Shown here piece by piece: positions 21,839 to 58,386 of a stretch of 60,217 nucleotides of DNA. Numbering within the stretch: the stretch's first letter is position 1; each line of letters starts with the position of its first letter. The notes beneath the pieces were generated by a model. The model was not told the origin of the DNA and made no database searches. It saw only the letters and a program-made list of their open reading frames with translations. The stretch is from Candidatus Limnocylindria bacterium (lineage in GTDB: Bacteria; Chloroflexota; Limnocylindria; QHBO01): the NCBI GenBank assembly GCA_036265975.1, contig DATAOD010000225.1:1-60217 (forward strand). Direction: 5' to 3'. The translations under genes were made by a program, and so were the position numbers.

Positions 21839-21923
21839 CCGTTCTTCCGCGTGCCGCATCCTGTGAGGAACCGATGACCTCGAGCTGGCCGAGGCCCGCC
21901 CCGCTCACCCGGCGCGACTGCCG

Positions 21924-35735: not shown

Positions 35736-35736
35736 A

Positions 35737-40887: not shown

Positions 40888-41429
40888 CGCCAGGTCCCTG
40901 GGTTCGCTGCCTCGCCCTCGCTGTCAACTCCCCGGCGGCCGGCGTCCATGGCCGAGTCGATGATCCGCCAGGCGTCCTCGACGCCCAGCCAGCCGGCGAC
41001 ATCGGTCTGCCGACCCTCGAGCTCCTTGTAGATGTCGAAGAAGTTCTCGATCTCGCGCAGCCGATGCGGCGAAAGATCCTGCATCGTGCCCGTCTCGTCC
41101 CAGCGCGGGTCGTCGTGCGCCACGGCCAGGACCTTGTAGTCGTGGCCCTTGTCGTCGGTCATGTCCAGGACGCCGATGGGGCGGGCGCGGACGATGCAGC
41201 CGGGGAACGTGGGCTCGCTGATCACCACCAGGACATCCAGCGGGTCGCCGTCATCGGCCAAGCTGCCTTCGATGAAGCCGTAATCGCACGGGTAGTGCAC
41301 GCTCGAGTACAGGATGCGGTCGAGCACGAACCGATTGCGGGCGTGGTCGTACTCGTACTTGTTGCGGCTGCCGGACGGGATCTCGACCACCACCTCGATC
41401 GTGCCGCGGTCGGCGGGCGTCTCAGCCAC
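40884..41429 (-). CDS. ppa: inorganic pyrophosphatase (family I)
   Basis: [47 protein letters not shown]. Confidence 0.95.
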
Positions 41430-43660: not shown

Positions 43661-43705
43661 GGGCGGCTAGCGTAACGCCCGAAATACCGACCTGCCCCTG
43701 CCGCG

Positions 43706-44662: not shown

Positions 44663-45562
44663 TCAGGCGGGCTCGCTCCAGGTGCTCAGATCCCGGCCGA
44701 TGAGCCGCCCCAGCCTCTGGACCTCTGGCGCCAGCTCGGCCGTCAGACGACGGCGAAGGTCGGGGTCCATCGGCGCCCTGGCCTCCGGACGGCTGTTGGC
44801 GGTGACCAGCGCATCGCGAAGGCGATGCACCAGCGGCAGACGGCGCAGCGCCGGCACGACGGCGCGCAAGGGCCCGGGCGGCTGGAAGATGAGCCGCTGC
44901 AGCAGTCCAGAGCGCGGACGCCGGTTCGCGTTCTGCACCGCCAGGTTCACCGCCACGTCCTGGTCGACGCCCAGAAAGGCGAAGGTGTCGCGAACGACCG
45001 CGGCCGGGTCATCGCGCAGGTCCTCGTGGACGATGACGTGCACCCGTTCCGGGCCGAAGATGTTCAGGTAGCGCTGCAGCTGGTCGGCGAAGCCCACGGA
45101 GTGGCGATAGAAGAGCGCCTCGCGACGCAGCGCCGCCCGCGGAATGCGACGACCCGCGCGTCGATCTGGCTCGGCGGCCAGCGCATCGGCGAAATCGGCC
45201 AGGTCCTCGCGCTGGTTGAACAGCAGCTGGCTGTGCTGCGCATACATCACGTCGACCGGATTGCGGAGCATGACGATGGCCTGCGCGCCCGGCGAAAAGG
45301 CCTGGATCTCCGCTGCGGCGCTGGTGGAGTACAGGTACCAGGGGGAGGCCTCGCCGACCCGCTGGTCGGCCCGTGCATCGGCGAACAGGGCCAGGTATTC
45401 GGCCTCGGTCATGCGCCGATACCTGGCATCCAGGTCCGCTCCGAAGTACATCGGCTCCTTGTGGAAGGGCATGAAGACCGCTGGATGCTGCCGCAGGTAC
45501 TCATATAGCGAGGTGGTGCCAGCCTTGAACGCGCCGACGATGAAGAAGTCCGGCCGCTTCAT
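44663..45562 (-). CDS. sulfotransferase, paralog 2
   Basis: True start is the ATG at 45562 (MKRPDFFIVGAFKAGTTSLYEYLRQHPAVFMPFHKEPMYFG..VMLRNPVDVMYAQHSQ). The 590-aa ORF in the track is an upstream out-of-context extension. Confidence 0.85.
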   Translation of the reverse strand: MKRPDFFIVGAFKAGTTSLYEYLRQHPAVFMPFHKEPMYFGADLDARYRRMTEAEYLALFADARADQRVGEASPWYLYSTSAAAEIQAFSPGAQAIVMLRNPVDVMYAQHSQLLFNQREDLADFADALAAEPDRRAGRRIPRAALRREALFYRHSVGFADQLQRYLNIFGPERVHVIVHEDLRDDPAAVVRDTFAFLGVDQDVAVNLAVQNANRRPRSGLLQRLIFQPPGPLRAVVPALRRLPLVHRLRDALVTANSRPEARAPMDPDLRRRLTAELAPEVQRLGRLIGRDLSTWSEPA

Positions 45563-46488
45563 GCCGCGTGCGAGGTGGTCGGCTGCAGCCAGGCGGCCAG
45601 GTCCCTGCCGATGAGCTCGCCAAGCTCGCCGATCTCCGGCGCGAACTCGGCAAGGAGCCGCTCCCGCAGAGTGGGGTCCATCGGCTGTCGGCGCTGGGGG
45701 GTGCTGTTGATCCGCAGGAGGCGCTCGCGCACGGCATGCGCCAGCGGAAAGCGGCGAATGACCGGCACCAGCTTGAGCAGCGGCCCCGGCGGCTGGTAGA
45801 CCATCCGCTGCAGCGTCGGAAAGCGGACGCGCTTGTTCGGGTTGCTGATGGCGAACGGCGGGCGGAAGCCGGGGTCGACGCCAAGGAACTCCAGCACGGT
45901 GCGGTAGACCCCAGGCGTGTCGTCGCGGAAGTCGTCGTAGAGGATGACCAGCACCCGCTCCTGGCCGAACGCCTCGAAGTAGCGCCGCAGCTGCTCGGCG
46001 AAGTGGACGCTCTCGCGGTAGAAGAGGTTCTCCACTCGCAGCGGGCCTGGCGGGAGGCGTTCGCCGCGCCGTCGCGCTGGCTCCGCCTCGAGCGCCGCCC
46101 CGAAGTCCGCGATGTCCTCCTCCACGTTGAACAGCAGCTGGCTGTGCTGCGCGTACATGACGTCCACCGGATTGCGCAGCATCACGATGATCCGCGCCTC
46201 GGGTGCTGCGGCCTTGATCTCGGCGGCGGCCGAGCGCGAGTAGAGGTACCAGGCCGATGCCTCCCCGATGCGCTGGCCGGGGCGTGCGGGCGCGAACAGC
46301 GCCTCGTACTGGCTCAGAGGCATGCGGCCGTAGCGCCGCGTCAGGTCCTCGCCGAAATAGAGCGGCTCCTTGTGGAACGGCATGAACACCTGCGGATGGG
46401 GCCGCAGGTAGTCGTACATGGCCGTGGTGCCGCACTTGAACGCGCCGACGATGTAGAAATCGGGGAGGGGCATGAATGGTCCTGACAC
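45559..46488 (-). CDS. sulfotransferase, paralog 3
   Basis: LPDFYIVGAFKCGTTAMYDYLRPHPQVFMPFHKEPLYFG..VMLRNPVDVMYAQHSQ. 4-nt overlap with paralog 2. Confidence 0.85.
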   Translation of the reverse strand: MSGPFMPLPDFYIVGAFKCGTTAMYDYLRPHPQVFMPFHKEPLYFGEDLTRRYGRMPLSQYEALFAPARPGQRIGEASAWYLYSRSAAAEIKAAAPEARIIVMLRNPVDVMYAQHSQLLFNVEEDIADFGAALEAEPARRRGERLPPGPLRVENLFYRESVHFAEQLRRYFEAFGQERVLVILYDDFRDDTPGVYRTVLEFLGVDPGFRPPFAISNPNKRVRFPTLQRMVYQPPGPLLKLVPVIRRFPLAHAVRERLLRINSTPQRRQPMDPTLRERLLAEFAPEIGELGELIGRDLAAWLQPTTSHAA

Positions 46489-46592: not shown

Positions 46593-48200
46593 TTGCCTGA
46601 GCCCTGGCTCCCTGCCGACCATGGCACGGAGCAGGAGGGCCTGCGGCGCAAGGTCGCCCACGGCCTGACCTGGACGTTCATCCACACCTGGGGCGGGCAG
46701 GGCCTGAGCCTGCTGGTCTTCCTGGTGCTGGCGCGCCTCCTGACGCCTTCCCAGTTCGGGCTCGTCGCGCTGGCCGCCGTGTTCGTGGCGCTGGCCCAGC
46801 TGGTCATCGACCAGGGATTCGGCGACGCCATCATCCAGCGCCCCACCGTGACGCGCGGCCATATCGACACGGCCTTCTGGGTGGCGGTGGCCACCGGCAC
46901 GCTGCTGGCCATCATCGGGGTGCTGGCCGCCGGGCCGCTGTCGGTCCTGCTGGACGAGCCGCGCCTGACACCCATCCTGCAGGTCCTCTCGCTGCTGTTC
47001 ATCGTCTCGTCGCTGGGCAGCACCCAGCAGGCGCTGCTCCGGCGCGAGCTCGCGTTCCGCAGCCTCGCCACCCGCGGCCTGCTGGCGCTGGCCGGCGGCG
47101 GGGCGGTCGGCATCGTGATGGCGTTTCTCAACTTCGGCGCCTGGGCGCTGGTCGGCCAGCAGATCGCGGCGGCGCTGATCGGCGTGGTCACACTGTGGAC
47201 CATCAGCCCATGGCGGCCGGGCCTCGAGGTCTCCCGCCAGAACTTCGTGGAGCTGTTCAACTTCGGCATCAAGGTCGTCGGCTCCGACGTGCTGACGTTT
47301 CTGAGCCGCAACACGGACAACCTGCTCATCGGCGTATTCCTGGGATCGCGGCTGCTTGGCATCTACGCGGTGGCCTATCGGATCCTGGACACCAGCCAGA
47401 AGGTGCTGGTAAGCGTGTCGCGCCGGCTGGCCTTCCCAGCACTATCCAAGTTGCAGGGCGACCCGGAGCGGATGAAGCGGGCCTACCTCAAGCTGACGCG
47501 CATCGCAGGGTCAGCGATCCTGCCGGGCTACGTCGGCCTCGCCCTGGTCGCGCCGGAGATGACTGTCTTCCTGTTCGGATTCAAATGGCAGGACGCGGGA
47601 CCGGTGGCATCCATCCTGTTCCTGATCGGCCCGGTGCTGTCCATGCAGGCCTTCTCCACGTCGCTGCTCACCGCCGCGGGCTATCCGGACGTGGTGTTTC
47701 GCTTCCGGCTGATCACGACCGTGACGAACGTGGTGGGCTTCATCATCGCCGTGCAGTTCGGCAAGGACATCCTGTGGGTGGCGGTCGCCTACTCGGTGCG
47801 CGGCTACCTGCTGCTCCCCCTCAACCTTTCGTGGCAGAACCGCTACGGCGGCATCAACACGCGCGAGTATCTGGCCCAGCTGAAAGGCACCATCCTGGCC
47901 ACCCTGGCCATGACGGCGGCGGTGCTGGGCATCAAGTTCGGGCTGGGCAGCAGGGTGGGGAACTCCATGCTGCTTCTCCTGGAGGTCGTCACCGCCGCAA
48001 TCGTGTTCGTGGCGGTCATGTGGATCGCCAACCGCACGCTGCTGTACGAGATGCTGCGGGTGGGACGCCAGAGCATCCCGGGCATCAATCGGCTGGGGCG
48101 GCTGTTCACCAGCCGCCGCCGCGCGGCCGCGGCCTCCCGCGAGCCGGCCGCCGAGGCAAAGGCCGATGCGCTGTCGCCATCGACTCGGGGCGAGGAGTGA
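46593..48200 (+). CDS. polysaccharide flippase (Wzx, MOP/PST superfamily), second copy in the window
   Basis: TTG start after ggagga. LRRKVAHGLTWTFIHTWGGQGLSLLVFLVLARLLTPSQFG.. followed by about 12-14 TM helices. Confidence 0.8.
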   Translation: MPEPWLPADHGTEQEGLRRKVAHGLTWTFIHTWGGQGLSLLVFLVLARLLTPSQFGLVALAAVFVALAQLVIDQGFGDAIIQRPTVTRGHIDTAFWVAVATGTLLAIIGVLAAGPLSVLLDEPRLTPILQVLSLLFIVSSLGSTQQALLRRELAFRSLATRGLLALAGGGAVGIVMAFLNFGAWALVGQQIAAALIGVVTLWTISPWRPGLEVSRQNFVELFNFGIKVVGSDVLTFLSRNTDNLLIGVFLGSRLLGIYAVAYRILDTSQKVLVSVSRRLAFPALSKLQGDPERMKRAYLKLTRIAGSAILPGYVGLALVAPEMTVFLFGFKWQDAGPVASILFLIGPVLSMQAFSTSLLTAAGYPDVVFRFRLITTVTNVVGFIIAVQFGKDILWVAVAYSVRGYLLLPLNLSWQNRYGGINTREYLAQLKGTILATLAMTAAVLGIKFGLGSRVGNSMLLLLEVVTAAIVFVAVMWIANRTLLYEMLRVGRQSIPGINRLGRLFTSRRRAAAASREPAAEAKADALSPSTRGEE

Positions 48201-48216
48201 GCGAGGAGTGAGCGAG
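48190..48216. repeat. 11-bp tandem repeat gcgaggagtga x2.4 at the Wzx/TagF junction
   Basis: Read directly: gcgaggagtga gcgaggagtga gcgag. The first unit carries the Wzx stop. The second creates GGAG+GTG (48208) in the frame of the next gene. Confidence 0.7.
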
Positions 48217-48282
48217 CCGGAGCGGCCCCGCGAAGAGCCGGCGGGGACCCCGACCGAGCAGCCGGAGAAGCTGGGCAGGGCC

Positions 48283-49545
48283 ATGTGGGGCCTCAGCGGC
48301 GCACGTCCGGGCCTGCGCATGGCCGCCAAGCTCGCGCGCCGCAACGCGATGTCGGCCGTGTTCCAGGCCAGCCGCCTGTCACGTCGTGACAAGCGCATCT
48401 GGCTCTTCGGCAACCACAAGGGCTTTCGCGACAACCCCCGCTACCTGGCAGAGCACCTGGTGGCGGAGCACCCGGAGATCCAGGTCTGGTGGCAGGCCCG
48501 CAGCCGGAGGGAGGCGGAAGCCGCGCGCGCGGCCGGCCTCCGGGTGGTGATGCGCAGCTCGAGAGCCGGCGCCCGATTGCACCTGAAGGCCGGCGTCGCG
48601 TTCCTGTGTTCCGGCTTCATGGATCTGCGCGTCCCGCGCCTTGGCGGCGCGTACATCGTGCACCTCTACCACGGCACCGCCCTGAAGCGGATCTCCTTGG
48701 ACGTGGAGTTCGAGCGCTTCGTGACCGGCTCCTCGTTCCTGCGCTGGTACGCCCGGCGGCAGCACGCCGGGCTGCAGGCACGCCATCGCCGCGTATCCAT
48801 GGTCGTCGCGGCCGGGAGGCTTGCCCAGCGTCGCTTCGAGACCGCCTTTGGCCTGCCCGCCGAACGCATCCCGGTGCTCGGCACGCCACGCTTCGACGTG
48901 ATCCGCGGCGGTCCTGCCTACGACCGGGTTGCCGGCGGCGATCTCCGCAAGCGCCTCGGCATCGGGGCCGATGACCACCTGGTCGTCTGGCTGCCCACCT
49001 GGCGCGAGGCCGGCGACGCCGGCTGGCTGCCGGCGGTCGACGCGGGGGCGGTGCAGACGGCTTTCGGCGGCAGCAGGGTCAAGATGCTCGTCAAGCCGCA
49101 CCCCTACGCTGATTTCGACGTGTATCGCGACCGACTGCCCGATCATCCCGCCCTGCGCCTGCTTCCCGAGGACGACACGGACGTCAACTGCCTGCTGCGC
49201 ATCGCCGACACGCTGGTCACCGATTACTCCAGCGCGATCTTCGACTATGCGCTGCTCCATCGGCCCATCCACTTCTTCGCACCCGATGCGGCCGAGTACA
49301 CGCAGGGCCGTGGCTTCTACGAGCCGTACGACGACCTGACCGATGGGCGCCACCACCTGGCCTGGGACAGCCTGCTGCCCGCGCTGCGCGATGCTGCGGA
49401 GGGGAGCGATGGGGCCGGCCAGGCCATGGCCGAGCGCGTTGCGCGCCTGGCCGGCAACTGCGAGGAGCCTGGCAACTGCGAGCGCATCTTCCGCGCGGTG
49501 GCTGCCGCGGCCGGGGTGCCGGGCGTGGAGGCCGCGCCCGCGTGA
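48283..49545 (+). CDS. CDP-alditol:polymer alditol-phosphotransferase (TagB/TagF family), paralog 1
   Basis: LFGNHKGFRDNPRYLAEH..HLYHGTALKR..GTPRFD..VTDYSSAIFDYALLHRPIHFFAPD..GFYEPYDDL. The start is uncertain (48166, 48208 and 48283 are all in frame). Confidence 0.8.
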   Translation: MWGLSGARPGLRMAAKLARRNAMSAVFQASRLSRRDKRIWLFGNHKGFRDNPRYLAEHLVAEHPEIQVWWQARSRREAEAARAAGLRVVMRSSRAGARLHLKAGVAFLCSGFMDLRVPRLGGAYIVHLYHGTALKRISLDVEFERFVTGSSFLRWYARRQHAGLQARHRRVSMVVAAGRLAQRRFETAFGLPAERIPVLGTPRFDVIRGGPAYDRVAGGDLRKRLGIGADDHLVVWLPTWREAGDAGWLPAVDAGAVQTAFGGSRVKMLVKPHPYADFDVYRDRLPDHPALRLLPEDDTDVNCLLRIADTLVTDYSSAIFDYALLHRPIHFFAPDAAEYTQGRGFYEPYDDLTDGRHHLAWDSLLPALRDAAEGSDGAGQAMAERVARLAGNCEEPGNCERIFRAVAAAAGVPGVEAAPA

Positions 49546-50846
49546 CGGAGGACATGCCCCGGGCCATCACCGCCCCCATCAAGGAGCTGCAGGGCGAGGG
49601 TGGCGGCGCGCGGCGCATGGTGATCAGCTTCGTCCGGCGCACGGGCGGGGCAGGGATCTACTACCTCAGCCGCCTGTCTCGGCGCGATCGACGGGTGTGG
49701 GTGTTCGGCAACCACAAGGGGTTCCGGGACAACCCGCGCTACCTGGCCGAGCACATCGTCCATGCCCACCCGGAGCTGCAGCCATGGTGGATAGCCCGCA
49801 CGCCGGGCGAGGCGAAGATGGCGAGGGAAGCGGGCCTGCGGGTCACGATGTTCGCCAGCCGCGAGGCTGCGCGCATCCAGCGCCACGCCGGCGTCGCCTT
49901 CCTGTCGAATGCCTTCATCGACCTGCGCGCGCCGTACCTGGGCGGGGCGCTCATCGTGCACCTCTACCACGGCACGGCGCTGAAGCGTGTGCTGCTGGAC
50001 ATGGACGTGACGCGCGTGATGCGCGAGTCGCTCGCGACGCGGGCGTTCAAGCGCTTCCACCGCTGGTCCATCGCGCGGCGGCTGCGCCAGGTGGACCTGA
50101 TCATGGCCGCAGGTGAGCTCGCCCGGGAGCGCTTCGTGACCGCCTTCGGCATCCCGGCCGAGCGCATCCCGCCGGTGGGCACGCCGCGCTTCGACGTGAT
50201 CCAGGGCGGCGCCGCCTACGACCGGGTGGTACACGGCGACCTGCGTGCCCAGCTGGGCGTCAAGCCGAACGAGCACCTGGTGCTGTGGCTGCCCACCTGG
50301 CGCGAGCATGGGGACGCCGCCTGGCTGCCGCCGTTGGACGCCGCCACCGTGGACGAGGCGTTCGGCGGCACGAACGTGGTGATGCTGGTCAAGACCCATC
50401 CGTATGCCGACCACGAGGTGTACGGGGAGCGGCTGCCGCAGCATCCCAAGGTCCGGCTGCTGCCGGAGGCGGACGTGGACGTGAACACGTTGCTGCGCAT
50501 CGCCGACACGCTGGTGACCGACTACTCGAGCGCTTTCTTCGACTACGCCCTGCTGGAGCGGCCCATCCACTTCTTCGCGCCGGATACCGGCGAGTACCGC
50601 GGCGGCCGTGGCCTGTACGAGCCGTTCGAGAACCTCACCGGCGACCAGCACCACACCGAGTGGCGTTCGCTGCTGCTGGCGCTGGCCGACGCCTCGCGCG
50701 GCGAGGACGAGCAGGGCATGGCCATGATGCGGCGGGTGGTCGCCATGGCGCGCAACAACACCGAGCCCGGCAGCTGCGAGCGGATCGTGCAGACGGTGGC
50801 GCGCGCCGCCGGCGTCACGCTGGCCCCAGCGGTCGAGGAGACCTAG
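49542..50846 (+). CDS. CDP-alditol:polymer alditol-phosphotransferase (TagB/TagF family), paralog 2
   Basis: GTGA overlap with paralog 1. VFGNHKGFRDNPRYLAEH..VTDYSSAFFDYALLERPIHFFAPD..GLYEPFENL. Roughly two-thirds identical to paralog 1 by eye. Confidence 0.85.
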   Translation: MTEDMPRAITAPIKELQGEGGGARRMVISFVRRTGGAGIYYLSRLSRRDRRVWVFGNHKGFRDNPRYLAEHIVHAHPELQPWWIARTPGEAKMAREAGLRVTMFASREAARIQRHAGVAFLSNAFIDLRAPYLGGALIVHLYHGTALKRVLLDMDVTRVMRESLATRAFKRFHRWSIARRLRQVDLIMAAGELARERFVTAFGIPAERIPPVGTPRFDVIQGGAAYDRVVHGDLRAQLGVKPNEHLVLWLPTWREHGDAAWLPPLDAATVDEAFGGTNVVMLVKTHPYADHEVYGERLPQHPKVRLLPEADVDVNTLLRIADTLVTDYSSAFFDYALLERPIHFFAPDTGEYRGGRGLYEPFENLTGDQHHTEWRSLLLALADASRGEDEQGMAMMRRVVAMARNNTEPGSCERIVQTVARAAGVTLAPAVEET

Positions 50847-51586
50847 CCGGCGCCTTCCTTGAGAAACGACGGCAGCAGCCGCCGCGCATTGTCCAGGTCC
50901 TCGGCGAAGTCGATCTCCGTCCAGGCTCGGCCACGGGTCGGCACGGCCATGGCCTCGGCTCCGCCATCGGCAAGCAGGCGGTTGATGGCGGCCTCGAAGT
51001 AGGAGCCAATGGCGCCATCGGCCACCTCGTCCTCCATCGCCCGCACCAGTCCCGGCACGATCTGCCTGCGAAAGAGCCCGATGCCGATGAACTCGCCCGC
51101 GGTCCGCTCTTCGGGCAGCTCCTTCGACAGGTGCAGCACGCGGTCGCCCGCGACCTCCGCCTTCATCTGCTCCGGCTCGCCGGCACGCATGTCGACCGGC
51201 AGCGCGATGTCGGCATCGGCGGCCAGGATGTCGTCCAGGATGGTCGGGTCGAAGACCGTGTCGGCGTGGGCGTACACGAAGTCGTCGTCCAGCCGGTCTC
51301 GGGCGAACCAGGCCGAGCCGAGCACGTTGGTCACGCTCCAGAAGGGGTTGAACACGAACTCCAGCCGGATGCGCCCGGCGGCGCGCCGCTCGGCAGCCGC
51401 CTGCAGCAGGTCCCGTCGGTAGCCCACCACCAGCACGACACGGCTGACGCCGCGAGCGATGAGCACGTCGAGCTGCAGCTCCAGCGGGGTGATGCCGCCC
51501 AGGTCGATCAGGGACTTCGGCAGCTCGTCGGTCAGGCCGCCCAGCCGCGAGCCGCGGCCGGCCGCCATGATCAGTGCATCGGTCAC
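50843..51586 (-). CDS. nucleotidyltransferase (LicC-like small phospho-alcohol/sugar-phosphate NTP transferase)
   Basis: ALIMAAGRGSRLGGLTDELPKSLIDLGG..VVGYRRD..FNPFWSVTNVLGSAWFA..W.EIDFAEDL. Confidence 0.75.
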   Translation of the reverse strand: MTDALIMAAGRGSRLGGLTDELPKSLIDLGGITPLELQLDVLIARGVSRVVLVVGYRRDLLQAAAERRAAGRIRLEFVFNPFWSVTNVLGSAWFARDRLDDDFVYAHADTVFDPTILDDILAADADIALPVDMRAGEPEQMKAEVAGDRVLHLSKELPEERTAGEFIGIGLFRRQIVPGLVRAMEDEVADGAIGSYFEAAINRLLADGGAEAMAVPTRGRAWTEIDFAEDLDNARRLLPSFLKEGAG

Positions 51587-52731
51587 CAGCTCGCCTCGTA
51601 GAGCGCCAGCAGGGCGTCGGGGTCCGTTGGCCCCGGGTCGTTCTCGAGCGTGCCCTCCACCATGCTCGCCAGTCGCGGCAGGTCCTCGCGGCCGATGCCC
51701 AGGTCCCGCAGGCGCGGCTGCAGGTCGATGCGCTCCATGAACTCCAGCGCCGCCTTCGCTACCGCGGCCGCGGCCTCGGTCTCGTCGCGTGCCGCGCTGC
51801 CGACCCTCTCGGCAAACGCCGCCAGCCGCTCGGGGGCGTGGACCATTACCCGCGCCAGCCAGGCCGGCGTGATGGCGGCCACGCCCGTTGCGTGCTCGCT
51901 GCGCGCCACGGAGCCCAGCGGGTACTGCATGCGGTGGGGCAGGCAGGTGGTCGAGTTCGCCAGGTTGATGCCCATCAGCAGCGCTGCGTAGCTGGCCGAG
52001 CCGCGTGCGGACACGTCGTCCGGCGCAGCCAGGGCGCGCGGCACGGCGTCGAGCAGGCGCGGGAACGCCTCCAGCGCCAGCATGCGGGTTGCCGGGCTGG
52101 CGGCCCGCGAGACGGTCGTCTCAACGGCATGCGCCAAGGCGTCGAACCCGGCGCGCGCGGTGACCCTTGGCGGGCAGCCGACGACGAGCTCGGGATCCAC
52201 GATCGCCGCACGTGCCGCGACCCCTCGACCCCGGATGCCGTGCTTCCGGCCCGTGTCCGGATCCATGACGATGGCGCCGCGGCTGACCTCCGCCCCTGAG
52301 CCGGCGGTGGTGGGCAGCGCGACCACCGGCAGGCCGACGGGAGTGTCGAAGCGCGGCCCGGTGGCCAGCTGCTCCGCATCAATCACCGAGCGAGCGCTGA
52401 TGGCTGCCGCCTTGGCCAGGTCCAGCACGCTGCCGCCACCGATCGCGACCACGACCTCGGTCCCGTGCTCGCGCAGGGTGTCCGCGGCGCTCATGACCGC
52501 GCCGATCTCCGGCTCGCCGTCCACCTGCCAGCGCGCCACCACCTCCACGTCCGCCTCGCGCAGCGACGACTCCAGCTCGGCGGCGTGCGGGCCGGAGGTG
52601 AAGGAGCGCTTCCCAGTGAGCAGCGCAGCGCGCGTTCCGAAGCCGGCCGCCACCGTGCCGACCTGCGCTCGGCGCCCGGCGCCGAAGGTGATGGTCGTGT
52701 CGAGCCCGAACGCGAACGGCTCCACGCTCAT
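51583..52731 (-). CDS. iron-containing (group III) alcohol dehydrogenase family protein
   Basis: 382 aa. VVVAIGGGSVLDLAKAAA..LPTTAGSGAEVS. His-rich metal-site region FDALAHAVE. Confidence 0.8.
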   Translation of the reverse strand: MSVEPFAFGLDTTITFGAGRRAQVGTVAAGFGTRAALLTGKRSFTSGPHAAELESSLREADVEVVARWQVDGEPEIGAVMSAADTLREHGTEVVVAIGGGSVLDLAKAAAISARSVIDAEQLATGPRFDTPVGLPVVALPTTAGSGAEVSRGAIVMDPDTGRKHGIRGRGVAARAAIVDPELVVGCPPRVTARAGFDALAHAVETTVSRAASPATRMLALEAFPRLLDAVPRALAAPDDVSARGSASYAALLMGINLANSTTCLPHRMQYPLGSVARSEHATGVAAITPAWLARVMVHAPERLAAFAERVGSAARDETEAAAAVAKAALEFMERIDLQPRLRDLGIGREDLPRLASMVEGTLENDPGPTDPDALLALYEASW

Positions 52732-52741
52732 CGGCCGCGCC

Positions 52742-54280
52742 TCACAGGTTCTCGGTGTAGGCGGGCTTGGTGCGCAGCACTTCCCGATGCAGGCCGATCA
52801 GCCGCTCGCGCTCGTCGAACAGCTCGCGGAGGCTGGCGTACAGGCCGCGATACACGCCGAAGAAGTCGCGGTACATGGCGGTGCGATGCTCGTTGGGCTC
52901 GTACTCGTCGTCGAAGTCGACGCACGCGGCACTTGCCTCGGACAGGGAGGCGTAGCGGCCACTGGATACCAGCGCCACCAGGGCGGCGCCCAGGGCCGTG
53001 GTCTCGATCTCCCGGGTCGTTCGCACCGGCACGCCCAGCATGTCCGCCTTGATCTGGTTGATGGGCACCAGCCGCGCCAGGCCGCCGGACGCCGACACGC
53101 GATCGATCCGCACCCCCGCTTCACGCAGCCGTTCCGCGATGTCCAGAACGCTGAAGGCGGCGCCCTCGAACACGGCACGGATGAGGTCCGGTCGCTGGTG
53201 GTTGCGCCCCAGCCCGAAGAAGACGGCGCGTGCGTTGGCGTCCCAGACCGGCGCCCGCTCGCCGAGCAGGTAGGGCAGGAACGTGATGCCGGCCGCGCCC
53301 GGCGGCGCATCGGCCGCCTCGCTGGTCATGGCGGCATACGGGTCTGCCTCACCGGCGTACAGCAGCTGCTTGGCCCATTCGATGATGCCGCCACCCAGGT
53401 TGTTCGAGCCGCCGGCCAGGAAGTGGCCGGGCGCCGCGTGGGGCGCAACGAACAGGCCGCCGCCCTCGTCGCCCAGGTCTCGATCGGTGACGACGCGGAA
53501 GCTGGTGACGGTGCCGGAGACATCGCACGCGTCGCCGACATCGGCCACCCCGGCGCCGTACACCGCGCAGATGGCGTCGTAGGTGGAGACCACTGCGCGC
53601 GCGTCATCGGGCAGTCCGTAGCGGCTGATGAGCTCGCCGCGCAGGGGTATCGTCCGACCGCCGGGAGCCACGACCGGTGGCAGGGTCTCCAGCTCGATGC
53701 CCAGCGACTGCAGCAGGCAGTCGGGATAGGCGCCGGTGCCCGGGTCGTACAGGTATTTGCTGGCGTTGTGATGGTCGGTGACCATCTCGCCGGTGAGGCG
53801 GTGCAGCAGGAAGTCGTTCGGCGTGGCGAACCAATCGGCTGCCGCGAAGCGCTCCGGCTCGTTCTCCTTGACCCAGACGATCTTGGGCAGCACCAGGTCG
53901 GAGGTGACCCGCCCCCGGCTGTTGCCGAGCTCGGCGAACTCCGGCGAGGCCTCGATCCGGGCCGCCTGCTGCGCCGCGCGGACGTCGCTGATCATGATCG
54001 CGTTCCCCAGCGCGGTCCCGTCGCGTGTCATCGGCACCAGGCAGCCGGCGGACGCGGTCACGCTGAATAGCTGGACGTTGCGGGCGAGCTGCGGATCGGC
54101 CAGCACGTTGTCCAGCGCCTGCAGCCCGGCGTTCCACCAGTCGTCGGGGCGCTGCTCCACGCGACCCTCGCCCATCTCCGTGGCGATCGGATGATGCGAG
54201 ATGGCCAGGCGGCGCCCGTCCTCGTCGAACACGACCGCGCGCATGCTCTTGAGACCCAGGTTGACGACGCAGACGCTCAT
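52742..54280 (-). CDS. FGGY-family carbohydrate kinase (xylulokinase-like)
   Basis: VVNLGLKSMRAVVFDEDG..DDWW..PKIVWVKENEPE..YLLGERAPVWD..SGGLAR. Confidence 0.8.
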   Translation of the reverse strand: MSVCVVNLGLKSMRAVVFDEDGRRLAISHHPIATEMGEGRVEQRPDDWWNAGLQALDNVLADPQLARNVQLFSVTASAGCLVPMTRDGTALGNAIMISDVRAAQQAARIEASPEFAELGNSRGRVTSDLVLPKIVWVKENEPERFAAADWFATPNDFLLHRLTGEMVTDHHNASKYLYDPGTGAYPDCLLQSLGIELETLPPVVAPGGRTIPLRGELISRYGLPDDARAVVSTYDAICAVYGAGVADVGDACDVSGTVTSFRVVTDRDLGDEGGGLFVAPHAAPGHFLAGGSNNLGGGIIEWAKQLLYAGEADPYAAMTSEAADAPPGAAGITFLPYLLGERAPVWDANARAVFFGLGRNHQRPDLIRAVFEGAAFSVLDIAERLREAGVRIDRVSASGGLARLVPINQIKADMLGVPVRTTREIETTALGAALVALVSSGRYASLSEASAACVDFDDEYEPNEHRTAMYRDFFGVYRGLYASLRELFDERERLIGLHREVLRTKPAYTENL

Positions 54281-54304
54281 GCCGCGCGCCGCACCCGCAA
54301 GCGG

Positions 54305-55201
54305 CTATTCGGGCTCATCCAGCCGATCCTCCGGAGCCTCTCGACGGCCGCTGGCACGGCCCGCGGACCCGCACAGATCCATGTACTCCTCGGCCATGCG
54401 ACGCACCTCGTCGCGCCCCGAGCCGAGGTAGCGGCGCAGATCGCTGCGTCCAGCCTCGGTCTCCCATGCTAGGCGAATGCCGTCGGCCAGGGCTCGGCTG
54501 ACGCGCGACGATATGTTGACCTTGCCGATGCCGGCCGCCACCAGCTCGGGCAGCTGGCTGCGGCGCACGCCGGATCCCCCGTGCAGCGCGAGCGGACGGT
54601 GGACCGCATCTGCCATTCGGCGGACGACGTCCAGGTCAAGCTCGACGCTGTCCTCCGGCATGCGATGCAGGCTGCCGATGGCCGCCGCCATGATGTCGAC
54701 GCCGGTTGCATCGGCGAACGCAACAGCCTCCTCGGGCAGCGTCAGCAGCGCGCGTGCCTCGTCCAGCGTCATCGCCTCGCTGCCACTGATCACCCCCAGC
54801 TCGCCCTCGACCGCGATCCCATGGCCGGCGGCTCGCTCCACGATGCCGCGGGTGATCTCGACGTTCTCCGCTAGCGGCAGCAGGGAGCCGTCGAACATCA
54901 CGGAGCCAAAGCCGTCGGCCAGCGCGCGATGCACCACCTCCGGGTCGCGACAGTGGTCAAGGTGGACCACCACCGGCACGGCGGCGCGATCGGCCTCGGC
55001 GAAGGCAAGGTCACGGATGGACTCGTAGCCCGCGTACGCGATGGCCCCGGGGCTGACCTGCAGCATCACCGGCGAGGAGCAGGCATCGGCCGCGCGCAGG
55101 ATCGCCTGTGCCGTCTCCAGGTTGGCGACGTTGATCGCGGGCAGGGCATAGCCGGACTCGAAGGCATGGCGGACCGCGTCGACGCCGGCTACGCGTGGCA
55201 T
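54305..55201 (-). CDS. class II ketose-bisphosphate aldolase family protein (FBA_II fold)
   Basis: Start placed at the internal ATG (55201), giving MPRVAGVDAVRHAFESGYALPAINV. VVVHLDHC, EGELG, IGSLH and LHGGSG are the metal/phosphate motifs. Confidence 0.8.
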   Translation of the reverse strand: MPRVAGVDAVRHAFESGYALPAINVANLETAQAILRAADACSSPVMLQVSPGAIAYAGYESIRDLAFAEADRAAVPVVVHLDHCRDPEVVHRALADGFGSVMFDGSLLPLAENVEITRGIVERAAGHGIAVEGELGVISGSEAMTLDEARALLTLPEEAVAFADATGVDIMAAAIGSLHRMPEDSVELDLDVVRRMADAVHRPLALHGGSGVRRSQLPELVAAGIGKVNISSRVSRALADGIRLAWETEAGRSDLRRYLGSGRDEVRRMAEEYMDLCGSAGRASGRREAPEDRLDEPE

Positions 55202-55301
55202 CGGGCAGGCAGGCGGGAGTGCATTGGGGGCCATTGTGCCCGCCCGCGAGCCCATCGGCTACGATGCTCGGCGCTCCCCATGCCAACCGCTCCATTGATC
55301 G

Positions 55302-56213
55302 ATGCCCGGCGCTGAGGCAGGACGCCCCGACTTCTTCATCGTCGGAGCGCCGAAGAGCGGCACCACCGCGCTCTACCAATATCTCCGCCAGCACCCGCAG
55401 GTCTTCATGTCGGACCCGAAGGAACCGAACTACTTCGGGGCCGATCTCGAGCGCCGGCGCACGCCGCGCATCGGCCTCCAGGAGTACCTGCGCTACTTCG
55501 CCGGAGCCGGTGACGCACTGCGCGTGGGTGAAGCGTCGGTGCGCTACCTGCACTCCCGCAGCGCGGCGCGCGAGATCGCCCAGTTCGCGCCGGATGGGCA
55601 GGCGATCATCATGCTGCGCGACCCGGTTGAGATGATGTATTCGATGCATGGTGAGCTGGTGTTCATCGGCGCGGAGGACATCATCGACTTCGCCGATGCG
55701 CTCGACGCGGAGGACGAGCGCAGGCAGGGAAGGCGCATCCCGGCGGGCGCCAACAAGCCGGCGGCGCTCCTCTATCGCGACTCGGCGCACTTCGCCGAGC
55801 AGGTGGAGCGCTACTTCGACGCACTGGGGCGTGACCGGGTGCTGGTGATCATCTACGACGACTTCCGTGACGACACGCTGGGGAGCTACCGGCGCGCGCT
55901 GGAGTTCCTGGGCGTCGACCCCTCGTTCGTGCCGCGGATGGCGGTCGTCAACCCCAGCAAGCAGCCGCGCAGCCGGCTGCTGACACGGCTGATCGCCAGC
56001 CCACCGGGCTGGGTGCGCGGCGTGGCAGGCGCCGTGCTGCCGGCGCGCCAGCGCAAGCGCCTCTTCCGGCGTGCGCTGGCCCTCAACTCGCGCACGGCGC
56101 CGCGCTCGCCCATGGACCCCGAGCTGCGCGCGCGCCTGAAGGCCGAGTTCGCGCCCGAGGTACGGCGGCTGGGCGAGCTGATCGGCAGGGATCTCTCGGC
56201 GTGGAGCGTGTGA
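55302..56213 (+). CDS. sulfotransferase, paralog 4
   Basis: RPDFFIVGAPKSGTTALYQYLRQHPQVFMSDPKEPNYFG..IMLRDPVEMMYSMHGE. Confidence 0.85.
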   Translation: MPGAEAGRPDFFIVGAPKSGTTALYQYLRQHPQVFMSDPKEPNYFGADLERRRTPRIGLQEYLRYFAGAGDALRVGEASVRYLHSRSAAREIAQFAPDGQAIIMLRDPVEMMYSMHGELVFIGAEDIIDFADALDAEDERRQGRRIPAGANKPAALLYRDSAHFAEQVERYFDALGRDRVLVIIYDDFRDDTLGSYRRALEFLGVDPSFVPRMAVVNPSKQPRSRLLTRLIASPPGWVRGVAGAVLPARQRKRLFRRALALNSRTAPRSPMDPELRARLKAEFAPEVRRLGELIGRDLSAWSV

Positions 56214-57472
56214 GCCTGGCCGGCCCGGGGCCGGCGGACCCGGCCGCAGCCGAGGATCGGCCGGATGCGGTACGCCTGCTCATCGTGATGCCAAATGATC
56301 CGGAGCGGATGCGCATCGGCGGCATTGCCTCCTTCGTGCGCGGGTTCGTGAAGTTCGCCCCGCCCGATTTCGACCTTGCCTTCCTTGGCGTGACCGCCCA
56401 GGGGCCCCTCTGGCAGTGGCGCTGGACCGAGTTCGAGGGCAGGGCGCTGCGCTTCATGCCCATCGCCCACGGGCAGCCCGGCGTCCGGAGCCGCGTTCCG
56501 GTCGCCCTGCGCTTCGCCGGCTCGATGCTGCTGCACCGCGGGGCGCTGCGCCTTCCCGGCTGGATCGCCTCGTTTCACCGACCGGGCACGGAGATCGCCA
56601 TGCGCGACTTCGCCATGCCGATGTGGCGCGTCGTCCATCTGGGGGTGGAGGACCTGCGCACACAGGGCAGCGAGAGCCGCTGGCGCCGGCTCTCGGGACT
56701 GCTGGAGTCGCTGGAGCGCCGGGCGTTCGGGCGCATGGACCGCATCTACGTCGTGAACGAGCGCGTCGCGGAGGAGTACCGACGGCGCTTCGGGGAGGTC
56801 GCACAGCGGATCCATTTCCTGCCCAACTGGGCCGATCCGACCATCTTCCATGCGATTGACCCGGTCGAGCGAGGGGCGCTGCGCGGCTCCGTGGCGGCCG
56901 ATATCGGCCAGCAGGTGGACGGCCCGCTGCTGCTCTACGCCGGACGCCTGGAGGGTCAGAAGGACCCGCTGCTGCTTGCGGAGGCATTTGCGGCGTTCGC
57001 GGCGCGGCGCAGCGATGCCCGCCTGCTGGTTGCCGGCGAGGGATCGCTGCAGGAGGCCGTCCGGGCACGCCTGCGGGCAAAGGGCGTGGACGGCCGCGTG
57101 CACTTCCTTGGCACCGTTCCGCGGCTGCGCCTGGCCCAGCTGATGCAGGCGGCCGATGCGCTGCTCATCACGTCCGCCTTCGAGACGGGGCCCACCGTCG
57201 GGCTCGAGGCGCTGGCCTGCGGCCTGCCGGTGATCACCACGCCGGTGGGCCAGGTCGCTCGCGTGGTGGCCGATGGGGGCGCCGGCATCACCACCACCGA
57301 CCGCAGGCCCACCTCCCTGGCCGATGGCATGGCATGGGTCGCCGACCAGCCCCATAACGACCTGCGCGCGGCAGCAGTCGCCGCCGCCGAGCCGTACCTG
57401 GCCGATCGCGTACTCGAGGGGCTGTACGCCTATAACCGCTCGCTGGCGCAGCGGCGGGGGACCGCGGCATGA
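56201..57472 (+). CDS. glycosyltransferase, GT-B fold (GT4 family)
   Basis: LYAGRLEGQKDPLLL..LLVAGEGSL..ITSAFETGPTVGLEALACGLPVITTPVG. The start (GTG 56201 or 56210) overlaps the stop of sulfotransferase 4. Confidence 0.8.
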   Translation: MERVSLAGPGPADPAAAEDRPDAVRLLIVMPNDPERMRIGGIASFVRGFVKFAPPDFDLAFLGVTAQGPLWQWRWTEFEGRALRFMPIAHGQPGVRSRVPVALRFAGSMLLHRGALRLPGWIASFHRPGTEIAMRDFAMPMWRVVHLGVEDLRTQGSESRWRRLSGLLESLERRAFGRMDRIYVVNERVAEEYRRRFGEVAQRIHFLPNWADPTIFHAIDPVERGALRGSVAADIGQQVDGPLLLYAGRLEGQKDPLLLAEAFAAFAARRSDARLLVAGEGSLQEAVRARLRAKGVDGRVHFLGTVPRLRLAQLMQAADALLITSAFETGPTVGLEALACGLPVITTPVGQVARVVADGGAGITTTDRRPTSLADGMAWVADQPHNDLRAAAVAAAEPYLADRVLEGLYAYNRSLAQRRGTAA

Positions 57473-58386
57473 GCGAAGTCCGGCCCAACTTCTTCATCGT
57501 CGGCGCGCCACGCTGCGGGACCACCGCCATGTACGAGTACCTGCGCCAGCACCCCGACGTGTTCATGCCTTACCGCAAGGAGCCGGTGTTCTTCGGCAGC
57601 GACCTGACGAAGCGCCGGCCGCCGATGACCGAGGCCGAGTACCTGGAGCTGTTCCGTCCCGGCGCCAGCCGCTCGCGCCGCGGCGAGGCGACGGTCTGGT
57701 ACCTCTACTCGCAGACGGCTCCGGGCGAGATCCGGGCCTTCAGCCAGGATCCCCGGATCATCATCATGCTGCGCAACCCGGTGGACATGATGTACTCGCT
57801 CCACAGCCAGCTGTTCTTCTCCGCCAACGAGGACCTGGCGGACTTTGGGGCGGCGATCGCGGCCGAGGAGGATCGCCGCCAGGGCCGCCGCATGCCGCCG
57901 CGCGCGCGACGACCGGAGGGCCTGCAGTACCGCGCCTGCGGCCGCTACGCTGCCCACGTGCGGCGCTACCTGGAGGCATTCGGACCCGACGCCGTGCGGG
58001 TCATCATCTATGACGACTTCAGCTCCGATGCTGCCGCCAGCTATCGACAGACGCTCGCCTTCCTGGGCGTCGACCCGAGCTTTCAGCCGGATTTCTCGGT
58101 CGTGAACAGGAGCAAGGCGCCGCGCAGCCGCTGGCTGCAGCAGCTGACCTACGCGCCGTGGTTCATGCGCACCACCGCGCGTCTGCCGAAGCCCGTCAAC
58201 CATCTCATCCGTCGCTCCCTGAAGCGGCTGAACTTCAGGGAGCAGCCACGCACGATGCTCGATCCGCAGCTTCGCGCGCGGCTGACCCAGGAGATGGCGC
58301 CTGACGTCGCTGAGCTGGGCGAGCTCCTGGGGCGCGACCTGAGCAGCTGGAGCCATCCGCCCACGCCATCCGCGAGCGCCGCATGA
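57469..58386 (+). CDS. sulfotransferase, paralog 5 (PSB-loop Lys replaced by Arg)
   Basis: RPNFFIVGAPRCGTTAMYEYLRQHPDVFMPYRKEPVFFG..IMLRNPVDMMYSLHSQ. ATGA overlap with the GT4 stop. Confidence 0.85.
   Translation: MSEVRPNFFIVGAPRCGTTAMYEYLRQHPDVFMPYRKEPVFFGSDLTKRRPPMTEAEYLELFRPGASRSRRGEATVWYLYSQTAPGEIRAFSQDPRIIIMLRNPVDMMYSLHSQLFFSANEDLADFGAAIAAEEDRRQGRRMPPRARRPEGLQYRACGRYAAHVRRYLEAFGPDAVRVIIYDDFSSDAAASYRQTLAFLGVDPSFQPDFSVVNRSKAPRSRWLQQLTYAPWFMRTTARLPKPVNHLIRRSLKRLNFREQPRTMLDPQLRARLTQEMAPDVAELGELLGRDLSSWSHPPTPSASAA

Follow-up and report, generated by a model that had tools for sequence, protein, structure and literature searches.

The CDP-glycerol and CDP-ribitol pathways are the entry to wall teichoic acids (WTA) and to many capsules, and they are targets for drugs and vaccines. 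In Streptococcus pneumoniae, a capsule locus encodes a CDP-2-glycerol pathway that consists of the reductase Gtp1, the phosphotransferase Gtp3, and the cytidylyltransferase Gtp2, beside a glycerophosphotransferase. This pathway is mentioned in PMC1391919, and a mammalian ribitol route has been proposed in which aldehyde reduction is followed by an FGGY kinase and then by the cytidylyltransferase ISPD (PMC13576159, PMC4873967). Here, we describe a four-gene cassette in a 60,217-nucleotide stretch of DNA from a Candidatus Limnocylindria bacterium (contig DATAOD010000225.1; called the window below; G+C content of ~70%) that encodes an aldolase, an FGGY-family kinase, an iron-containing alcohol dehydrogenase (Fe-ADH), and a nucleotidyltransferase (NT). 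The evidence throughout is computational. It identifies the cassette as a conserved and apparently undescribed gene combination for the probable biosynthesis of a CDP-alcohol donor; searches of the literature accessible to us returned nothing on this combination, on CDP-erythritol, CDP-threitol, or CDP-propanediol, or on capsule loci with these genes.

A four-gene cassette recurs beside CDP-alcohol phosphotransferase genes

The cassette lies on the minus strand and begins with a class II (FBA_II) ketose-bisphosphate-type aldolase (54305..55201; Pfam F_bP_aldolase, 7.6e-82). This gene is followed by a kinase of a distinct FGGY subfamily (52742..54280; FGGY_N, 4.5e-32, and FGGY_C, 4e-36), a group III Fe-ADH (51583..52731; Fe-ADH, 2.5e-38, and ADH_Fe_C, 2.1e-32), and an NT that resembles the CTP:phospho-alcohol cytidylyltransferases LicC, PntC, and IPCT (50843..51586; NTP_transf_3, 1.9e-12). 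An initial annotation, made from the sequence alone, had described these genes as a tightly packed unit, and the open reading frame (ORF) coordinates agree: 24 nt separate the aldolase from the kinase, 10 nt separate the kinase from the Fe-ADH, and the Fe-ADH and NT genes overlap by 4 nt. The longest aldolase ORF spans 54305-55255, and alignment with orthologues supports the second ATG, at 55201, as the start, in agreement with the initial annotation. A scan with a consensus of the sigma-70 type returned no promoter-like site inside the four-gene unit, and a terminator scan returned a single terminator-like site, within the NT gene, which does not exceed the yield from shuffled sequence; both scans are weak evidence.

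Two TagB/F-type polyol-phosphate transferase genes stand next to the cassette on the plus strand, namely, paralog 1 (48166..49545; Glyphos_transf, 1.1e-49) and paralog 2 (49542..50846; Glyphos_transf, 1.9e-49). Paralog 2 converges on the cassette and, as the initial annotation had it, its stop and that of the NT gene share the CTAG at 50843-50846. The two proteins score 169.0 and 169.8 bits, respectively, against PF04464 (gathering cutoff, 22.1). Paralog 2 has Staphylococcus epidermidis TagF (3l7i, 1.4e-24) as its best Protein Data Bank (PDB) match, and both proteins lean slightly toward glycerol-phosphate enzymes, against which they score best (TagF 3l7i and the TarF model); neither reaches the NCBIfam equivalog cutoff for TarB, TarF, or TarL. 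The pair is kept beside the cassette in L003-L008 and other loci. No TagD-type gene was detected in the window by tblastn with an approximate Bacillus subtilis TagD query or by Pfam scans, which covered the confident ORFs and part of the small ones, in agreement with what had been noted at the outset; tblastn was likewise negative for a hidden TagD in related loci.

The order aldolase-FGGY-Fe-ADH-NT recurs in ~60 loci from four phyla, mostly represented by metagenome-assembled genomes (MAGs) and metagenomes, with amino acid identities to the window proteins of about 30% to 91%. This conservation is far beyond chance: all four genes are present, with their order unchanged, in 18/18 loci from the genome collection and in most metagenome loci. 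A scan of species-representative genomes yielded 11 loci in Chloroflexota and Methylomirabilota and 7 in Verrucomicrobiota (including a MAG of an Akkermansia sp.), along with one weak, partial match in a Bacteroidaceae MAG that is confined to the N-terminal 50 residues. A metagenome scan added 58 loci, including a large low-G+C clade that is assigned by database names to Lachnospiraceae, Blautia, and Ruminococcus flavefaciens MAGs. The carriers are Chloroflexota (Limnocylindria among them), Methylomirabilota, Verrucomicrobiota, and these Clostridia. Soil metagenomes and Chloroflexota MAGs contain many NT homologues with 57-98% identity; the window NT retrieves 89 protein clusters (50% identity) at E<=1e-30, and the Clostridial NT retrieves 899 clusters (90% identity) at E<=1e-20.

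What adjoins the cassette differs among these groups. In soil and Chloroflexota neighborhoods, the four genes are followed by one or two Glyphos_transf genes, and the outer flanks differ. In each of the seven Verrucomicrobiota loci, the NT is followed by a CDP-OH_P_transf gene inside an O-antigen-like locus, and the Methylomirabilota locus has two CDP-OH_P_transf genes after the NT, followed by a flippase and glycosyltransferases. Clostridial cassettes are followed by a Glyphos_transf gene and are usually preceded by a fusion of a TagD-like domain with a GFO-family dehydrogenase and by a UgpQ-like glycerophosphodiester phosphodiesterase (GDPD); in one Clostridial locus, a LicD-family gene abuts the aldolase. 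BLAST searches with a handful of transferase queries placed a CDP-alcohol phosphotransferase beside the cassette in 45 of the 55 loci with at least 1.2 kb of sequence beyond the NT (33 TagF-like [Glyphos_transf], 11 CDP-OH_P_transf, and 1 LicD). The association with TagB/F-type enzymes that the initial annotation had drawn from a single locus holds in 33 loci, and the cassette adjoins three unrelated families of CDP-alcohol phosphotransferases, within loci for polysaccharides or teichoic acids. As a control for the bias of seeding with the NT, we also seeded the search with the kinase and sampled four of the homologues (41-49% identity); all four are in polysaccharide loci, and at most one gene separates them from an NT. 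A catabolic context (transporter, isomerase, or regulator) was found in none of the sampled loci, whether NT or kinase seeded.

Not all cassettes are complete. An FGGY gene was found in every locus with room for it, and of the 45 loci that extend far enough upstream, 39 have the aldolase. L055, L071/72, L073, L085, L089, and L090 lack the aldolase alone, as do L040/41 and L086-88, where an AAA/PDDEXK insertion replaces it. L060 (TagF, FGGY, NT, GT1) and two Blautia MAGs (L083/L084; TagD-GFO, GDPD, FGGY, NT, TagF) have neither the aldolase nor the Fe-ADH. In L091/92, an APS (adenosine 5'-phosphosulfate)-kinase-like gene occupies the Fe-ADH position between the kinase and the NT; the kinase gene is preceded by one for a sulfotransferase-like protein, and two genes downstream there is an FBA_II gene of a more canonical type. 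Since these variants keep the FGGY kinase and the NT and lose the aldolase and/or the Fe-ADH, the kinase and the NT are the committed pair and invariant core of the cassette, and the aldolase and Fe-ADH are accessory.

Sequence features of the four enzymes

The NT was compared with structures in the PDB by profile search. Matches along its whole length were confined to PntC (6pd1, 1e-22, residues 2-242), LicC (1jyk, 7e-20, 2-238), and IPCT (4jd0, 5e-14, 2-232). Sugar-1-phosphate nucleotidyltransferases matched only at about positions 1-80, the N-terminal nucleoside triphosphate loop. The A-A-G-x-G-x-R and P-K motifs are invariant. Pfam assigns the protein to NTP_transf_3 and NTP_transferase and not to PF01467, the CTP_transf_like family of TagD-type enzymes, and its match to the IspD family, expected of a TarI-type enzyme, is N terminal only and below cutoff (20.9 bits; cutoff, 27). 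By sequence comparison, the NT therefore groups with the PntC/LicC/IPCT enzymes and not with hexose-1-phosphate nucleotidyltransferases, a specificity that would have undercut the route first proposed. Because the position of the choline-binding Trp of LicC is an invariant Met-Lys in the cassette NT, a cationic head group is unlikely. The NT would use CTP and a phosphorylated alcohol, as is suggested indirectly by the neighboring transferases, which belong to families that use CDP-alcohols. Some NT homologues carry the JGI label "L-glutamine-phosphate cytidylyltransferase." The Campylobacter jejuni O-methyl-phosphoramidate (MeOPN) pathway (Cj1415-Cj1418), which combines a PPDK-like Gln kinase, a Cj1416-type NT, a C26 amidase, and an APS-kinase-like 3'-kinase, was considered and set aside, as the window has no APS-kinase-like ORF and Pfam scans of its confident ORFs detected no such partners.

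The kinase is closest to XylB and to a Lactobacillus FGGY structure (3gbt), with GlpK well below. Against the NCBIfam XylB model (TIGR01312; cutoff, 380), the window, Verrucomicrobia, and Clostridia proteins score 257, 196, and 278 bits, respectively. Among the groupings to be distinguished, XylB is thus nearest, if short of its cutoff, and GlpK (143 bits; cutoff, 590) is not supported. A study of FGGY specificity places the erythritol kinase EryA in the RhaB lineage, and it holds no residue-level specificity key that is applicable to the cassette kinase (PMC3245297). The cassette kinase is unlike that lineage (27 bits to the RhaB model). D238, G259-T260, and G402-G403 (window numbering plus 3) are invariant in 49 sequences, and so the catalytic Asp, phosphate-2 G-T, and adenosine G-G motifs of the family are present. 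The phosphate-1 motif is N-x-G-x-K-S in all clades and aligns with the D-x-G-T of 3gbt, XylB 2itm, and GlpK 2dpn; the universal Mg-binding Asp of D-x-G-T is consequently an Asn (N-L-G-L-K-S in the window and L002-L092). In acetate kinases, too, the corresponding ASKHA residue is Asn. The aromatic residues on which substrates stack in XylB and GlpK are aliphatic in the cassette kinases, and alignment with 2dpn revealed no conservation at the glycerol-binding positions of GlpK, which we take to be R83, E84, W103, and Y135 in the Escherichia coli enzyme. The cassette kinases also end in a conserved E-N-L tail.

Among 59 Fe-ADH sequences, the G101-S104 stretch (GGGS) and the metal ligands D200, H204, H269, and H283 are invariant. 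The closest NCBIfam models are ErcA, GbsB, SarD, PsrA, and FucO, all below cutoff; PsrA, the model for an Fe-ADH of phosphonate clusters, gives 147-183 bits. The initial annotation had raised the FucO, glycerol dehydrogenase, and glycerol-1-phosphate dehydrogenase (G1PDH) clades as candidate relatives, and the enzyme falls below cutoff for all three: 136 bits for FucO (cutoff, 523), 42 bits for glycerol dehydrogenase (cutoff, 336), and, reached by the Clostridial copy only, 37.5 bits for G1PDH (cutoff, 413). The 59 sequences share two features of the cassette enzymes: a P-H-R-x-Q-Y motif, in place of the v-H-a-m-a-H of ordinary enzymes, and an additional Arg, likewise invariant, on the strand that follows the conserved Lys. 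From engineering studies of FucO, we take this strand to line the substrate pocket, which would place the cassette-specific Arg there. If so, the substrate is probably anionic (phosphorylated or CDP linked), because two cassette-specific Arg residues are invariant.

The aldolase passes the NCBIfam subfamily model TIGR00167 (cbbA; 233.5 bits versus a cutoff of 215.6) and reaches no NCBIfam equivalog cutoff. In 40 cassette aldolases, L-D-H, H182, H210, E135/E137, and K-x-N are invariant, and the Zn ligands, catalytic Asp, and dihydroxyacetone phosphate (DHAP) site are conserved. At the site for the distal (C6) phosphate, the Ser of Q-x-S is invariant; the distal Arg is kept in Chloroflexota (DLRR), is replaced in Clostridia (DP[L/I]K), and is without counterpart in Verrucomicrobiota. 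The roles of these class II aldolase residues, including the distal Arg of the C-terminal "DPRK," are taken from PMC10665668. The best PDB match is the class II sulfofructose-1-phosphate aldolase SqiA (8q57, 6e-54). In SqiA, the sulfonate pocket involves the backbone of Gln51/Lys52 and an Ala that replaces the distal Arg of FBA (PMC10665668). The window protein has P-G at 51/52 and Arg at the Ala257 position and keeps the FBA-type residues; on these grounds, we rejected a sulfo-sugar substrate. In Chloroflexota and Methylomirabilota aldolases (window 54305-54330; L003, L005, L009-L011, and L014), the C terminus is extended by a tail with a conserved (D/A/E)-E-P-E at its end, a feature not shared by canonical class II aldolases or by the other clades.

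Judged by their conserved residues, all four enzymes look catalytically competent. No cassette protein from any of three clades reached an NCBIfam equivalog cutoff, and no substrate could therefore be assigned by homology.

Proposed pathway and alternative explanations

We think it likely that the cassette acts as a portable module that supplies a CDP-activated small alcohol (polyol) phosphate, and with slightly greater confidence, we expect that it makes a CDP-linked small alcohol phosphate from which the adjacent transferases install phosphodiester units. A biosynthetic CDP-alcohol route is well supported because the NT aligns over its full length only with PntC, LicC, and IPCT. In the model we prefer, the class II aldolase would cleave a ketose phosphate to DHAP and an aldehyde, the Fe-ADH would turn this aldehyde into the alcohol (or the alcohol phosphate), the FGGY kinase would convert the free alcohol and ATP to the alcohol phosphate, and the NT would use this product and CTP to form the CDP-alcohol and pyrophosphate. 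In a convergent version, de novo synthesis of the alcohol phosphate would fall to the Fe-ADH, acting on an aldose phosphate, and the kinase would salvage the free alcohol. The aldolase and Fe-ADH would in either case be replaceable by housekeeping enzymes or by an external supply. In the window, the two TagF-like enzymes would install the unit as phosphodiester-linked residues of a WTA-like polymer. The initial annotation had proposed a noncanonical route feeding the TagB/F enzymes, in the strict order of phosphorylation, cleavage or condensation, reduction, and activation. The core of this idea is upheld by the neighbors of the cassette and by the family of the NT. The strictly linear order is not, since the aldolase is missing from some loci and the Fe-ADH from a few, leaving FGGY-plus-NT-only, aldolase-less, and APS-kinase-like variants.

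As to the alcohol, our best guess is a C3-C4 polyol phosphate other than ordinary CDP-sn-3-glycerol and CDP-ribitol, with sn-glycerol-1-phosphate and erythritol-4-phosphate as the leading candidates and a pentitol phosphate next. A separate TarI/J-like fusion (IspD plus adh_short) beside the cassette in L003 makes ordinary CDP-ribitol unlikely, and ordinary CDP-sn-3-glycerol is unlikely because the Clostridial cassettes lie beside a TagD-like domain (109 bits to the glycerol-3-phosphate cytidylyltransferase model) and GDPD and because the kinase lacks the glycerol site of GlpK. Reduction of D-glyceraldehyde-3-phosphate (GAP) gives sn-glycerol-1-phosphate. An isomer of glycerol phosphate, such as this one, is our tentative first choice, erythritol or another tetritol phosphate is a weaker candidate, and a pentitol phosphate is weaker again; some other alcohol accounts for the rest of our expectation. 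Donors built on glycerol-1,3-bisphosphate or another bisphosphate, which basic residues in the Fe-ADH and NT had brought to mind, are chemically implausible for chain extension and were rejected. The chance that the cassette makes an undescribed donor (e.g., CDP-sn-glycerol-1-phosphate, CDP-erythritol, or another C2-C5 alcohol) and hence a new class of phosphodiester unit is substantial, if somewhat short of even. CDP-sn-glycerol-1-phosphate would mirror the TagD product in its stereochemistry, and the enzymes that make it would be counterparts, divergent or unrelated, of GlpK, GpsA, and TagD.

Several points weigh against the pathway we propose. The functional steps are read from sequence, and homology names no substrate; with the Mg-binding Asp replaced by Asn, even kinase activity is an assumption. 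The invariant Arg pair of the Fe-ADH hints at an anionic substrate over a free aldehyde. The aldolase has no obvious ketose-1-phosphate substrate, formed de novo, that would give a free aldehyde, and if its product is an aldose phosphate, the kinase fits poorly into a linear route. The Clostridial TagD-like fusion may make something other than CDP-glycerol, which would weaken the exclusion of that donor. Finally, 10 of the 55 loci had no transferase recognizable with our handful of BLAST queries.

One alternative is that the kinase acts first. In such a linear route, the FGGY kinase would phosphorylate C1 of a ketose phosphate (sedoheptulose-7-phosphate, a pentulose-5-phosphate, or a hexulose-6-phosphate), the aldolase would release DHAP and erythrose-4-phosphate, glycolaldehyde phosphate, or GAP, and the Fe-ADH would supply the NT with erythritol-4-phosphate, 2-hydroxyethyl phosphate, or sn-glycerol-1-phosphate; an example would be the conversion of sedoheptulose-7-phosphate via sedoheptulose-1,7-bisphosphate and erythrose-4-phosphate to erythritol-4-phosphate. 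All four enzymes would then have roles, starting from central metabolism. The invariant Arg of the Fe-ADH would fit a phospho-aldehyde, the aldolase belongs to the ketose-bisphosphate subfamily and keeps the distal-phosphate Ser (and, in Chloroflexota, the "DPRK" Arg), and a housekeeping FBA could cover for loss of the aldolase alone. However, the FGGY-plus-NT-only loci (L060 and L083/84) and the APS-kinase-like loci (L091/92) cannot run this route unaided, the distal Arg is missing from Clostridial and Verrucomicrobial cassettes, and we know of no FGGY kinase that acts on a sugar phosphate. The existence of the FGGY-plus-NT-only loci led us to demote this scheme to a rival, and we consider it unlikely. 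Another alternative is an Abp/Fom-like order, in which a ketose or aldose phosphate comes from the kinase and is cytidylylated by the NT, and reduction of the CDP-linked carbonyl by the Fe-ADH is the final step; loci lacking the Fe-ADH would then install an unreduced sugar phosphate. There are precedents in the conversion of CDP-xylulose to CDP-arabinitol and of CMP-phosphonoacetaldehyde to CMP-2-hydroxyethylphosphonate by FomC, and the routes to CDP-arabinitol, CDP-mannitol, and CDP-glucitol all place reduction after cytidylylation. The XylB-like kinase, the dispensability of the Fe-ADH in some loci, its similarity to PsrA, and its Arg residues, which could bind a diphosphate, are in keeping with such an order. 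Yet xylulose-5-phosphate and similar ketose phosphates belong to central metabolism, which would leave no need for an invariant kinase; the aldolase is left without a role; and group III Fe-ADHs normally act on aldehydes, not ketones. We regard this order as rather improbable.

The product might also be nothing more than ordinary CDP-(sn-3)-glycerol, made by nonorthologous enzymes (a variant glycerol kinase and an NT that replaces TagD) for a poly(glycerol phosphate), with the aldolase and Fe-ADH merely boosting the supply of triose or glycerol. CDP-glycerol is a donor for both TagF-type and CDP-OH_P_transf-type enzymes, both of which occur beside cassettes, and classical WTA machinery without a detected TagD, together with the lean of the TagF-like proteins toward glycerol-phosphate enzymes, is what this explanation would predict for the window. 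Against it, the kinase is nearer XylB and is without the glycerol-binding residues of GlpK, the TagD-like domain and GDPD of the Clostridial loci would make the cassette redundant, and it is hard to rationalize four genes for a metabolite that GpsA already provides. We find this explanation rather improbable too. A kinase, a metal-dependent aldolase, and an Fe-ADH are also the enzyme logic of fucose and rhamnose catabolism, and the cassette could in principle be a FucK/FucA/FucO-like sugar operon that lies beside cell wall genes by chance. This can practically be discounted, given that no transporter, isomerase, or regulator accompanies the genes, that the NT is always attached, that CDP-alcohol transferases are adjacent in four phyla, and that the aldolase is a PF01116 protein and not a member of the FucA/RhaD family. 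A mainly catabolic distribution of homologous cassettes, which would have spoken against the route first proposed, was thus not what the sampled loci revealed.

The glycopolymer locus around the cassette

The window around the cassette is, by its predicted gene content, a large cell envelope glycopolymer region. Pfam matches in its outer parts include MreB/MreC, a first flippase, a UDP-GlcNAc 2-epimerase, an aminotransferase, and a GFO oxidoreductase, and further genes encode a UDP-sugar dehydrogenase, GT2 and GT1 glycosyltransferases, Bac_transf, and Wzy. Enzymes of the WTA type comprise a TagO/WecA-type initiating GT4 transferase (21867..22886, plus strand; Glycos_transf_4, 3.1e-39), a TagA/WecG-type glycosyltransferase of the linkage unit (42887..43666, minus strand; Glyco_tran_WecG, 1.2e-43), and a LytR-CpsA-Psr (LCP) ligase (22903..24456, minus strand; LytR_cpsA_psr, 3.5e-24). 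In L004, L008, L012, and L013, the cassette is likewise flanked by LCP genes. An inorganic pyrophosphatase (40884..41459, minus strand; Pyrophosphatase, 1.7e-55) is also encoded, as it is next to TagA in L001; it could pull nucleotidyl-transfer reactions forward, if the functional link that we infer is correct. A phosphoesterase-family gene (PLC/AcpA-like) is embedded with the pyrophosphatase in the polymer locus (window 40884-42876).

Five sulfotransferase paralogs surround the TagF/cassette block. Three lie on the TagA side: 43706..44662 (plus strand; Sulfotransfer_3, 1.6e-19), 44663..45562 (minus strand, approximate start; Sulfotransfer_3/1 at residues 295-491 of ORF 44663-46435), which has tandem orthologues in L001 and L007, and 45559..46488 (minus strand; Sulfotransfer_3/1). 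The fourth, 55302..56213 (plus strand; Sulfotransfer_3/1), diverges from the cassette and has an 86% identical orthologue at the same position in L002 and L006. After a GT1-family glycosyltransferase (56201..57472, plus strand; Glycos_transf_1, 6.6e-30) comes the fifth (57469..58386, plus strand; Sulfotransfer_1/3), beyond which lies a 530-aa protein without an assigned family. Orthologous sets occur in L001, L003, L006, and L007. These paralogs suggest a heavily sulfated, teichoic-acid-like polymer in Limnocylindria.

Between the sulfotransferase and TagB/F-type genes lies a MOP/Wzx-type (TuaB-like) flippase (46593..48200, plus strand; Polysacc_synt_3, 2.3e-84; NCBIfam MOP flippase, 261 bits), which is kept in L001 and L007. 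The TagB/F-type genes are thus paired with a Wzx/TuaB-type flippase and not with a TagGH ABC exporter; another flippase is encoded at 9883-11742, and a Wzy-type gene is present at 32112-33710. The window polymer may be assembled by a Wzx/Wzy-type route instead of the classical WTA route. It would be started by the TagO/TagA-type enzymes, flipped by the Wzx-type flippase, probably sulfated, and attached by the LCP ligase. DegT aminotransferase, PglD-like acetyltransferase, and NeuB genes (window 35488-40887) indicate a putative pathway to a nonulosonic-acid or bacillosamine-type sugar in the region. The GC3 screen gave no confident ORF at 33710-35488 (G+C content of about 0.75), and a large, probably secreted protein with GH18, SH3_3, FlgD_ig, and Big_5 domains is encoded at 4294-7692, adjoining MreB/MreC.

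Other genes near cassettes in related loci

A conserved protein of ~287 aa is encoded directly upstream of the aldolase in most Verrucomicrobiota loci (L018-L023 and L075; e.g., L020 5557-6420); it has no significant Pfam match and faint similarity to NTP_transf_3. The Clostridial fusion of a TagD-like domain with a GFO/IolG-like dehydrogenase (L044 2400-4461; L040, L046, L048, L052, L079, L081, and L083-L088) is usually followed by the UgpQ-like GDPD (240-260 aa) and often preceded by a protein of 780-860 aa without a Pfam match. The fusion probably represents a second CDP-alcohol pathway.

In L057, a thiamine pyrophosphate-dependent decarboxylase-like gene (3300-4421; possibly phosphonopyruvate decarboxylase) lies directly upstream of the cassette aldolase and hints at a co-located phosphonate pathway. 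Genes like those for C. jejuni MeOPN (a PPDK_N plus PEP-utilizers protein, an APS-kinase-like gene, and a Peptidase_C26/GATase) occur 6-10 kb downstream of the cassette in L086-L088 (16365-20729), a Clostridial locus represented by many gut metagenome contigs. In L091 (6000-12668) and L092 (5991-12712), the genes for sulfotransferase-like, FGGY, APS-kinase-like, NT, AsnB-like, and FBA_II proteins lie in a nonulosonic-acid locus; by analogy to C. jejuni Cj1416/Cj1415, the CDP-alcohol might be 3' phosphorylated there and then used by a sulfotransferase-fold transferase. A link to 3'-phosphoadenosine-5'-phosphosulfate in Clostridia was considered and dropped, as the CysNC gene beside the cassette of L054 belongs to an ordinary sulfate assimilation operon with CysD and an ABC transporter and is probably irrelevant.

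Discussion

The cassette is widely distributed and would be a different entry point to polymers of the teichoic acid and capsule type. Its carriers include abundant human gut and rumen Clostridia, an Akkermansia sp. MAG, and soil Chloroflexota with almost unstudied envelopes. The identity of the donor would reveal surface polymer chemistry in these groups and would give functions to an FGGY subfamily that stands apart in its altered Mg site and to an Fe-ADH and an aldolase recruited to the synthesis of glycopolymers. Names that come from automatic annotation (e.g., "xylulokinase," "choline kinase," and "phosphocholine cytidylyltransferase") would be corrected as well. If the donor proves to be undescribed, a new class of teichoic-acid-like or capsule unit would extend across Chloroflexota, gut Clostridia, Verrucomicrobiota, and Methylomirabilota, and in the window, the polymer may be heavily sulfated as well.

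The known systems each share part of the cassette. With the TagD/TagB/TagF pathway to WTA, the window shares genes of the TagO, TagA, TagB/F, and LCP types, but no TagD was detected in it, a Wzx-type flippase takes the place of the TagGH exporter, and five sulfotransferase paralogs are added. The fucose and rhamnose operons (FucK/RhaB, FucA/RhaD, and FucO) follow the same trio logic of an FGGY kinase, a metal-dependent DHAP aldolase, and a group III Fe-ADH; the cassette differs in its aldolase (PF01116, not PF00596), its biosynthetic context, and the attached cytidylyltransferase and phosphotransferases. The NT is a full-length homologue of the cytidylyltransferases of the LicA/LicC (phosphocholine), PntC (2-aminoethylphosphonate), and IPCT (inositol-1-phosphate) systems, and as in IPCT/DIPPS, a CDP-OH_P_transf gene follows it in the Verrucomicrobiota and Methylomirabilota cassettes. 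Activation by a kinase followed by a cytidylyltransferase, as in the core pair of the cassette, is also the scheme of LicA/LicC. Compared with LicA/LicC, however, Met-Lys replaces the choline-binding Trp, and the partner kinase is of the FGGY family and not of the choline kinase fold.

The closest parallels in pathway logic are with systems that combine a reductase, a kinase, and a cytidylyltransferase. The pneumococcal Gtp1/Gtp3/Gtp2 set, compared here by description, does so and yields a nonstandard isomer of CDP-glycerol; it has no aldolase, and the FGGY kinase of the cassette would phosphorylate a primary, not a secondary, hydroxyl. CDP-ribitol synthesis (TarI/TarJ, Bcs1, and the mammalian route) likewise provides a CDP-alditol for phosphotransferases of the TarL/TagF or LicD/FKTN type. 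The cassette departs from it in having a LicC/PntC-like and not an IspD-type NT, an Fe-ADH in place of an MDR, SDR, or aldo-keto reductase, and an attached aldolase. Even so, the order of reductase, FGGY kinase, and cytidylyltransferase in the mammalian ribitol route matches the core logic of the cassette.

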